This document shows positions 13,732 to 14,642 of a stretch of 64,000 nucleotides of DNA, one piece after another. The first letter of the stretch is position 1; every line of letters begins with the position of its first letter. The notes beneath the pieces are model-generated. The model saw nothing but the letters and a program-made list of their open reading frames with translations, was not told where the DNA came from and searched no databases. A program made the position numbers and the translations under genes. Origin of the DNA: Escherichia phage LF82-1; the sequence record PV648359; one strand, 5' to 3'.

Positions 13732-14067
13732 TTAACCCCGGAGTTTATTGAGCTCTTCATAATCAATCCAGGATTCTAGCCCTGACGGCAGGTCACATTC
13801 AATGTTCCACAGAAGCTCTTCAATGGCTTGCAGGCGATTATATTCTTCAACAGTAATAGTAACCATTGTTTCAGGCTTTTTAACCATCATGTCATTCATC
13901 AGAATGTACAGATCTTCACAAACAGCCGGGTCGTCCCATGTCCATATTTCAGCATCTCGAACCAATGAAGTCGGAATAGAATTTAAAACTTCAAGCTTAG
14001 TAGGAGCGTCAGGACCGAGAAGAGTTGCTACAAATTTATATGCTTTGGCGAAATCAATATCGTTCAT
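13732..14067 (-). CDS. hypothetical acidic protein
   Basis: 111-aa ORF; its translation-initiation region is a 23-bp copy of the nrdC 3' end. Confidence 0.55.
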   Translation of the reverse strand: MNDIDFAKAYKFVATLLGPDAPTKLEVLNSIPTSLVRDAEIWTWDDPAVCEDLYILMNDMMVKKPETMVTITVEEYNRLQAIEELLWNIECDLPSGLESWIDYEELNKLRG

Positions 14068-14086
14068 TTAAAATATTCTCGCAGTT
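14064..14086. repeat. 23-bp direct repeat, copy 1 (second copy at about 14379..14401)
   Basis: tcatttaaaatattctcgcagtt occurs twice 315 bp apart, bracketing the 98-aa ORF 14086..14382. Confidence 0.7.
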
Positions 14087-14382
14087 TATTGTTCTACCCA
14101 GGCACAGGAAACTTCGAAATCAGGACCACCGTATTCCCAGTGATATTCACCAACAGGAATCCAGTCACCGTGCTCGTTTTCTTCGTAGTCTTCAGGTTCA
14201 AGACCAACGAATCGCCATTGAACACCTATGATTCGATTACCCATTAATATACGAAATTCACCCCATGGATTATCGATAGCATATTGGATATCGTTCTTAG
14301 CACGAGAACACATTTCTTGATATAACAAAGCTTCTAATTCGCCCTGATCATAAGGGCCCGGGAAAGTTAAATCAATACTCAT
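14086..14382 (-). CDS. hypothetical acidic protein (bracketed by 23-bp direct repeats)
   Basis: 98-aa ORF; ATGA overlap with nrdC stop. Confidence 0.55.
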   Translation of the reverse strand: MSIDLTFPGPYDQGELEALLYQEMCSRAKNDIQYAIDNPWGEFRILMGNRIIGVQWRFVGLEPEDYEENEHGDWIPVGEYHWEYGGPDFEVSCAWVEQ

Positions 14383-14642
14383 TTAAAATATTCTCGCAGT
14401 TGGTCAAATCCACCAATATGACTTCCATCAGGAGCAAATACTTGAGGCATAGTCAATCCAACTTGTGATTCACGTCCTAGTTTATTCAGAAGCTCGTCAA
14501 TTTTTTCTTCATCAAATACACCTTTCTCTGGCATAACATTAATGAATTCGAATGGCTGTTTCTTAACAGTCAGCAATCGTTTCGCATTATCACAATAAAT
14601 GCATTTATGAATAGTAGAGTCATACCCGTACACTTTAAACAT
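14379..14642 (-). CDS. nrdC: thioredoxin/glutaredoxin NrdC
   Basis: 87 aa from MFKVYGYD; CIYC redox motif; near-identical to T4 NrdC as recalled; AAAGGAAAA RBS. Confidence 0.9.
   Translation of the reverse strand: MFKVYGYDSTIHKCIYCDNAKRLLTVKKQPFEFINVMPEKGVFDEEKIDELLNKLGRESQVGLTMPQVFAPDGSHIGGFDQLREYFK

Follow-up and report, generated by a model that had tools for sequence, protein, structure and literature searches.

A probable short-homology recombination scar built on the end of nrdC accompanies a polymorphic gene 49.3 homologue in T-even phages

In bacteriophage T4, deletions and tandem amplifications occur between direct repeats of 3-13 nt in a UvsX-dependent manner, with longer identities being used more often (Wu et al. 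2021, PMC8262927), and identities of 6-10 bp behave alike (Srikant et al. 2022, PMC9391042); earlier work on rII and Hp17 is cited in both papers. Short direct repeats flank the affected segment in these minihomology cases, and the deletion allele keeps one copy of the repeat. Another group of related systems is formed by the PeSL + ORFan cassettes, in which a small gene of no assigned function, situated in a hyperplastic region and bracketed by copies of an expression signal, is present or absent in close relatives, and for which excision and insertion mediated by the repeats was proposed (Arbiol et al. 2010, PMC2839356; Comeau et al. 2014, PMC4122927). Out-of-register joints between collinear genomes are also found in the variable regions between core genes of T4-related mosaic genomes, where the junctions usually lack a recognisable signature and illegitimate recombination was suggested as the cause (Petrov et al. 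2010, PMC2993671). T4 itself possesses gene 49.3 (Y04L_BPT4; PF26871) directly after nrdC, joined to it by an ATGA overlap, with its own stop codon overlapping the start of 49.2 and with no copy of the nrdC tail behind it.

The locus described here consists of a 98-aa gene, ORF98, set between two identical 23-bp sequences behind nrdC in the window, that is, the whole stretch of 64,000 nucleotides of phage DNA that was analysed. As in the T4 minihomology cases, it concerns non-essential early genes of Tevenvirinae and a segment flanked by short direct repeats. The T4 cases were laboratory events at repeats of 3-13 nt under CRISPR or toxIN selection, whereas the present one is a natural and old polymorphism, known here from genomes alone, in which the 23-bp repeat itself appears to have been made by an earlier rearrangement. 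The joint also resembles those of the T4-related mosaics and, unlike them, is legible because 22-23 nt of a conserved gene were duplicated. We conclude that the locus is a clear but ordinary short-homology recombination scar, a known kind of event that involves no new mechanism; no description of this particular junction was found in the literature.

The region 13500-14900 of the window matched Escherichia phage LF82-2 and ten of its sibling isolates at 100% identity, and showed 91-97% identity to many RB69-like phages, classified as Mosigvirus by the ICTV. On these sequence identities, the window is assigned to a Mosigvirus, an RB69-like T-even phage. All the genes from nrdC to nrdD lie on the minus strand, and the neighbourhood is that of nrdC-pin-49 in T4 (Table 1). 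As for the start of nrdC, the mechanically called ORF opens with the ATG at 14657 (92 aa), while the annotation of LF82-2 places the start at 14642 (MFKVYGY..., 87 aa); T4 nrdC also has 87 aa, and with the start at 14642 there is an overlap between nrdC and the end of the 137-aa gene preceding it. At the other end of the neighbourhood, several relatives (L002, L013, L018) possess a homing endonuclease gene in or beside nrdD, just downstream of gene 49. In one of them, SHSML-52-1 (L002 1-1192), nrdD and gene 49 are annotated as short fragments; both are intact in the window.

Table 1. Features of the nrdC-nrdD neighbourhood and of the repeat-flanked unit (positions in the window)
Feature	Position	Strand	Description
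nrdC	14379-14642	-	thioredoxin/glutaredoxin, 87 aa; Pfam Glutaredoxin; annotated in LF82-2; T4 nrdC homologue
Repeat copy 2 (original)	14379-14401	-	last codons of nrdC (Q-LREYFK-stop) and overlapping ORF98 ATG
Presence/absence unit	14087-14401	-	315 bp = one repeat copy + ORF98; any 315-bp frame within 14064-14401 is equivalent
ORF98	14086-14382	-	98 aa; T4 gp49.3 homologue; optional cargo gene; Phage_T4_Y04L, phrog_4203
Repeat copy 1 (derived)	14064-14086	-	relic of the nrdC 3' end, non-coding; lies between ORF98 stop and ORF111 start
ORF111	13732-14067	-	111 aa; phrog_11244; C-terminal half = 56-aa phrog_3402 gene of T2
49.1-like gene	13593-13766	-	
DUF7279 gene	13433-13603	-	
pin	13006-13431	-	Lon protease inhibitor
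gene 49 (endonuclease VII)	12497-12970	-	
nrdD	10683-12500	-	

The 23-mer TCATTTAAAATATTCTCGCAGTT had exactly two exact matches in the window, 315 bp apart and given in Table 1 by their + strand positions, as an earlier note on this DNA had reported. No further match with up to 3 mismatches was detected in the window. The expectation from 100 dinucleotide-preserving shuffles was 0.00 matches, and all positions and readings of the note were borne out. The pair was also recovered as family D4, with a spacing of 315, in a separate survey of the repeat families of the window. In minus-strand orientation the sequence of copy 2 is AACTGCGAGAATATTTTAAATGA, which comprises the last base of a Gln codon, the codons for LREYFK and the stop codon of nrdC, of which the TGA is overlapped by the ATG of ORF98 (ATGA). 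Copy 1 extends from the final A of the TAA stop of ORF98 to the ATGA starting ORF111, and supplies ORF111 with a GAG Shine-Dalgarno-like triplet, a spacer and the ATG. These readings agree with the assignment of the two copies in the note, to the nrdC end with the overlapping ATG and to the initiation region of ORF111, respectively, and the annotation of phage Mizar places an RBS on the GAG in both copies. The 315-bp period, described in the note as the length of one small gene, is the sum of the 297 bp of ORF98 (stop included) and 18 intergenic bases. A weak additional similarity, ATTGATTT, was seen after the ATG of both copies with an offset of one codon, and was treated as chance.

The presence or absence of this unit in related genomes, which the note had proposed to check, was investigated using the span across the nrdC/ORF111 junction of phage NHEP11 as a query. 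One-piece matches of 401 bp, representing the empty site, were obtained for RB69, TU01, JS09, SSE1, phiEC1, SQ17, mar005P1 and others, and two-piece matches spanning 716 bp, representing the filled site, for ST0, p000v, WFbE185, ATK48 and NBG1; SHSML-52-1 was a further filled example. The filled allele is thus longer by exactly 315 bp, and one copy of the repeat is retained at the empty site. In empty genomes the end of nrdC, ...CAACTGCGAGAATATTTTAAATGA, runs directly into ORF111 with a single copy of the 23-mer. The flanking direct repeats (23 of 23 positions identical) and a short allele that lacks one period and keeps one copy are the marks of an indel at short homology. There were about 51-57 filled records and roughly 70-80 empty ones, the latter being an estimate from the 13:5 ratio in evenly sampled rows with duplicates included. 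Both states occurred within single ICTV species. The species JS09 contains the filled ST0 and the empty JS09, and the species mar005p1 contains the filled NBG1 and APCEc01, the empty mar005P1, and MM02, which has another arrangement.

ORF98 was identified as a homologue of T4 gp49.3, to which it showed 42% identity over 95 aa (BLASTP, E=1e-26), nearly the full length of the protein; its length, its position after nrdC and the ATGA overlap are also those of the T4 gene. It matched phrog_4203 at 1.1e-46, a family of unannotated function, and the domain PF26871 (Phage_T4_Y04L) was precomputed on all 7 of its database homologues. A search of the local Pfam copy gave zero domains for ORF98, including those of nucleases (GIY-YIG, HNH, LAGLIDADG), transposases and integrases. 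No match was obtained in the PDB sequence search, and the AF2 model (pLDDT 72, built from only 8 sequences) had no Foldseek match in the PDB at E<=0.001. In T4 and in the metagenomic locus L028, 49.3 follows nrdC with ATGA overlaps, and the repeat is absent. Likewise, the order of nrdC, 49.3 and a gene related to the C-terminal half of ORF111 was present, again with no repeat, in Citrobacter phage Merlin (Moonvirus) and in the T4-like metagenomic loci L027 and L028, with an extra gene inside the otherwise equal nrdC/49.3 order in Merlin. The occurrence of gp49.3 after nrdC in other genera that have no repeat indicates that the gene has long occupied this slot, and that it is the copy of the nrdC tail in front of ORF111 that is derived. 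The same direction follows from the tail itself, which is conserved in T4, Merlin, MM02 and ECO26.1 3-1 whichever gene comes next. The note was therefore right in deriving the repeat from the nrdC 3' end. Its suggestion that the gene had been inserted, or can be deleted, by short homology is supported with one qualification: the exact 315-bp polymorphism stands, while the gene is no newcomer and the tail copy is what was added. Relatives carrying the gene without the repeat, which the note had listed as counter-evidence, were found only as distant alleles in other lineages (42-66% aa identity) and never as the present allele.

The second copy of the tail is tied to the Mosigvirus allele of 49.3, as 51 of 51 records of this allele align through it, and it is absent from genomes with the empty site. 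A parent with this allele and without the repeat was detected neither in the phage collection nor in IMG/VR nor in the protein-database contexts examined. The alignments A1 and A2, in which the empty genomes RB69, NHEP11, BEU50, AV115 and AV116 were compared with 11 filled ones, showed that all 11 filled genomes share the joint GTAGAACAATAA|(A/C)CTGCGAGAA(T/A)ATTTTAAATG. One common junction in every filled genome points to a single founding event. Among these genomes, 49.3 differs at up to 32 of 290 nt and nrdC at up to 28 of 238, and this similar divergence suggests that the event is old relative to the diversification of Mosigvirus.

These observations bear on the idea that the repeats are the target-site duplication of a mobile element, or of a homing-type insertion of the 98-aa gene. 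A single gene between direct repeats, polymorphic among relatives, is what such an insertion would leave. Terminal inverted repeats were, however, absent from the ends of the 315-bp unit, ORF98 has neither a nuclease, transposase or integrase domain nor a structural match, and 23 bp is longer than typical target-site duplications. The gene holds the same slot behind nrdC in other genera without repeats, and is as diverged as its flanks, which argues against a recent mobile insertion. We regard this explanation as essentially refuted, and a classification as transposon or free-standing homing endonuclease gene was rejected on the same grounds of domains, inverted repeats and divergence.

The expression signals around the two copies were also analysed. 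No promoter-like site of the coding (minus) strand was found inside either copy; one 9-of-12 match to the promoter consensus on the + strand (14045-14074) overlaps copy 1, opposite to the strand of the genes, and the whole region contained 10 promoter-like sites against 8.6 expected from shuffles. No terminator-like site was found at the repeat, and the predicted RNA structure of both copies with their flanks was no better than that of shuffles (z +0.56 and +0.92). The locus is therefore not a PeSL cassette, as the promoter and the stem-loop/terminator are missing and only the single polymorphic small ORF in a hyperplastic region is present. PeSLs are early-promoter and stem-loop motifs repeated at many loci, whereas this repeat has neither on the coding strand and is a unique copy of the coding tail of the neighbouring gene together with a translation start.

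A start motif does recur nearby. The pattern GAGAATATT-N3-6-ATG occurs four times in the window against 0.12 expected, with all occurrences within 1.7 kb and at gene starts on the minus strand: pin (13429-13443), ORF111 (14065-14080), ORF98 (14380-14395) and an nrdC.7-like gene (15046-15060). Relative to the upstream genes, the motif is read in differing frames, a feature suggestive of a common translation-start signal and not of a coding constraint. The two copies could accordingly be looked upon, instead of as a scar, as a selected element for translation initiation or regulation whose likeness is maintained by selection or by gene conversion. Both indeed stand at gene starts with GAG and an A/T-rich spacer, and the related motif precedes the ATG of two other nearby genes with differing upstream frames. 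The identity between the copies, however, reaches 6 nt upstream of the shared motif into the nrdC coding sequence (AACTGC), the copies have drifted independently in 7 of 11 genomes as described below, and neither RNA structure nor coding-strand promoter nor terminator was predicted there. We consider a purely regulatory origin of the repeat very unlikely.

The perfect identity of the copies in the window is merely the unmutated state. In 7 of the 11 filled genomes the two copies are unlike each other by 1-3 bases. The changes were G to A in the upstream copy (Mizar, TH12, ATK48) and, in the downstream copy, A to C (FP43, APCEc01, ATK48, phiC120), T to A (FP43, APCEc01, ATK48) and ATGA to ATGT (ST0). 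Such drift demonstrates that the copies are neither homogenised nor strictly conserved.

The gene behind the tail copy, ORF111, is also variable. It is a fusion-like relative of gp50.3 and gp50.1 of phage S16, and of the 56-aa phrog_3402 gene of T2. The gene looks like a fusion of two small genes, which S16 (L006 1483-1835) keeps apart as gp50.3 and gp50.1; in T2 (L005 1501-1671), as in many Tequatrovirus and Klebsiella phages, the 56-aa C-terminal part alone is present (phrog_3402, with the label 'antitoxin'). In RB69 (L011 1200-1557), one extra G divides the gene into ORF092c and ORF091c. Homology of ORF111 to T4 49.2 (E=2.0) and paralogy between ORF98 and ORF111 (BLASTP, E=0.21) were both ruled out. 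Residues 66-86, in the conserved C-terminal half, gave a sub-threshold Pfam match to the RecBCD inhibitor gp5.9 of T7 (E=0.009, 16.3 bits vs a cutoff of 24.5), which is probably noise. Two alleles of the gene, W and R, were distinguished in the alignment (A2 columns 599-815); the first approximately 217 nt differ at 59-67 positions and by two indels, and the 3' half is nearly identical. Both alleles were found in filled and in empty genomes.

The haplotypes of nrdC, 49.3 and ORF111 have been decoupled by recombination. In the window, Mizar and TH12, the segment from ORF111 to 49.1 shows 0-1 differences over about 530 bp, the ORF111 allele being at most 1 nt apart, and the 49.3 genes differ at 18-25 of 290 positions (6-9%). 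The switch in divergence is confined to the last 14 nt of 49.3 and the repeat. This pattern is suggestive, being equally compatible with crossovers in the repeat and with recombination tracts ending at the heterology between ORF111 alleles.

It may be asked on this basis whether the 23-bp repeats are working sites for recurrent excision and re-insertion of 49.3, much like PeSL cassettes although built on a translation start region, so that most empty genomes would be independent secondary deletions. Several observations are in line with it: the W and R alleles each occur in both states, both states are found inside single species, one identical W-allele segment is found next to three different 49.3 haplotypes, the breakpoint lying in the last 14 nt of 49.3 and the repeat, T4 recombines readily at repeats far below 23 bp, and GAGAATATT-N3-6-ATG marks four gene starts within 1.7 kb. 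On the other hand, neither a tandem-amplified (two-copy) allele nor a de novo deletion was seen among 54 records (54 places), either allele can be spread through homologous recombination in the flanks alone, a heterology boundary explains the breakpoints at the repeat equally well, and copies that have diverged in 7 of 11 genomes are weaker recombination sites. Such recurrent activity is possible and in our judgement doubtful. The empty genomes of the present day may be ancestral or may have arisen by secondary deletion, as both histories are compatible with the shuffled flanking haplotypes in these sequences.

The explanation that we favour, and hold to be moderately probable, is that the pair of repeats arose by one out-of-register crossover and that the minihomology recombination of T-even phages is able to collapse it. 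The tail copy could be obtained only where ORF111 stands directly behind nrdC, which designates the empty arrangement as its source. In one Mosigvirus lineage, nrdC would thus have been followed immediately by ORF111, whose ATG overlapped the stop codon of nrdC; this empty state persists in RB69 and many others. Such an nrdC-ORF111 genome was probably produced when 49.3 was lost precisely, between AAATGA(C) stop/start overlaps of 6-7 nt like those flanking 49.3 in T4 and L028. An out-of-register crossover would then have taken place between an empty-type genome and a collinear one in which the order nrdC-49.3 was preserved, and this may have joined the 49.3 stop codon to a site in nrdC about 20-22 nt from the end of that gene. 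The predicted recombinant has the order nrdC - 49.3 - [nrdC tail] - ORF111, and as ORF111 retained its native translation start (GAG, spacer and ATG), this was probably why the recombinant was viable. This single crossover would predate the diversification of several Mosigvirus species.

Once formed, the 23-bp pair could be collapsed by UvsX-dependent minihomology recombination, by which 49.3 would be precisely lost and the nrdC/ORF111 overlap restored. By analogy with T4, which recombines at far shorter identities, two 23-bp copies 315 bp apart should be a good substrate. The product of such a deletion would be indistinguishable from the natural empty allele. The crossover itself, its direction and any actual deletion through the repeat are what we infer from the joint and its distribution. 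Ordinary homologous recombination in the flanks offers a further route for exchange of the alleles, so that filled and empty genomes would be expected to coexist even within a species.

The scar lies in a region that is plastic in other respects. At least four arrangements were found behind nrdC in Mosigvirus: nrdC-ORF111, nrdC-49.3-tail-ORF111, nrdC-ORF55-49.3(T4-type)-49.1 in MM02, and nrdC-X70-phrog_3402-49.1 in ECO26.1 3-1. MM02 (L019 1700-1900) and the metagenomic contig L027 (1335-1510) have a predicted membrane ORF of 55-57 aa, flanked by AAATGA, between nrdC and 49.3; the inserted ORF of MM02 opens with MIEL codons, as does the next gene, 49.3, representing another small duplication at a boundary. 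ECO26.1 3-1 (L020 1700-2090), in which the flanks are Mosigvirus-like, has a T2-type 70-aa gene and the 56-aa phrog_3402 gene behind nrdC, an arrangement that indicates replacement of a whole cassette at the same ATGA boundary. The pin gene is also present or absent in Mosigvirus, being missing in ST0 and AV116, and in the pin-less alleles (L008 2120-2240, L013 1785-1905) the end of the DUF7279 gene is fused to a remnant of about 15-20 nt from the 3' end of pin, a second scar of this kind. Relics of gene tails thus appear to be a recurrent type of scar in the nrdC-pin region. One could go further and suppose that the start motifs at the boundaries (GAGAATATT-N3-6-ATG and the AAATGA overlaps) are portable recombination linkers, by which single early genes of the nrdC-pin region of RB69-like phages are acquired, lost and exchanged as expression-ready, in-frame cassettes in a translational analogue of the PeSLs, with 49.3 kept polymorphic by host-dependent selection. 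We consider so general a role for the motifs improbable.

The short-homology scar at nrdC is of value in that the nrdC tail carried along with the neighbouring gene makes it possible to reconstruct the order of events. The coexistence of filled and empty alleles within species, together with a repeat longer than the known ones of T4, makes the locus a natural test system. It may be used to determine the rates of deletion at short homologies, and the contribution of the uncharacterised gp49.3 family to phage fitness.
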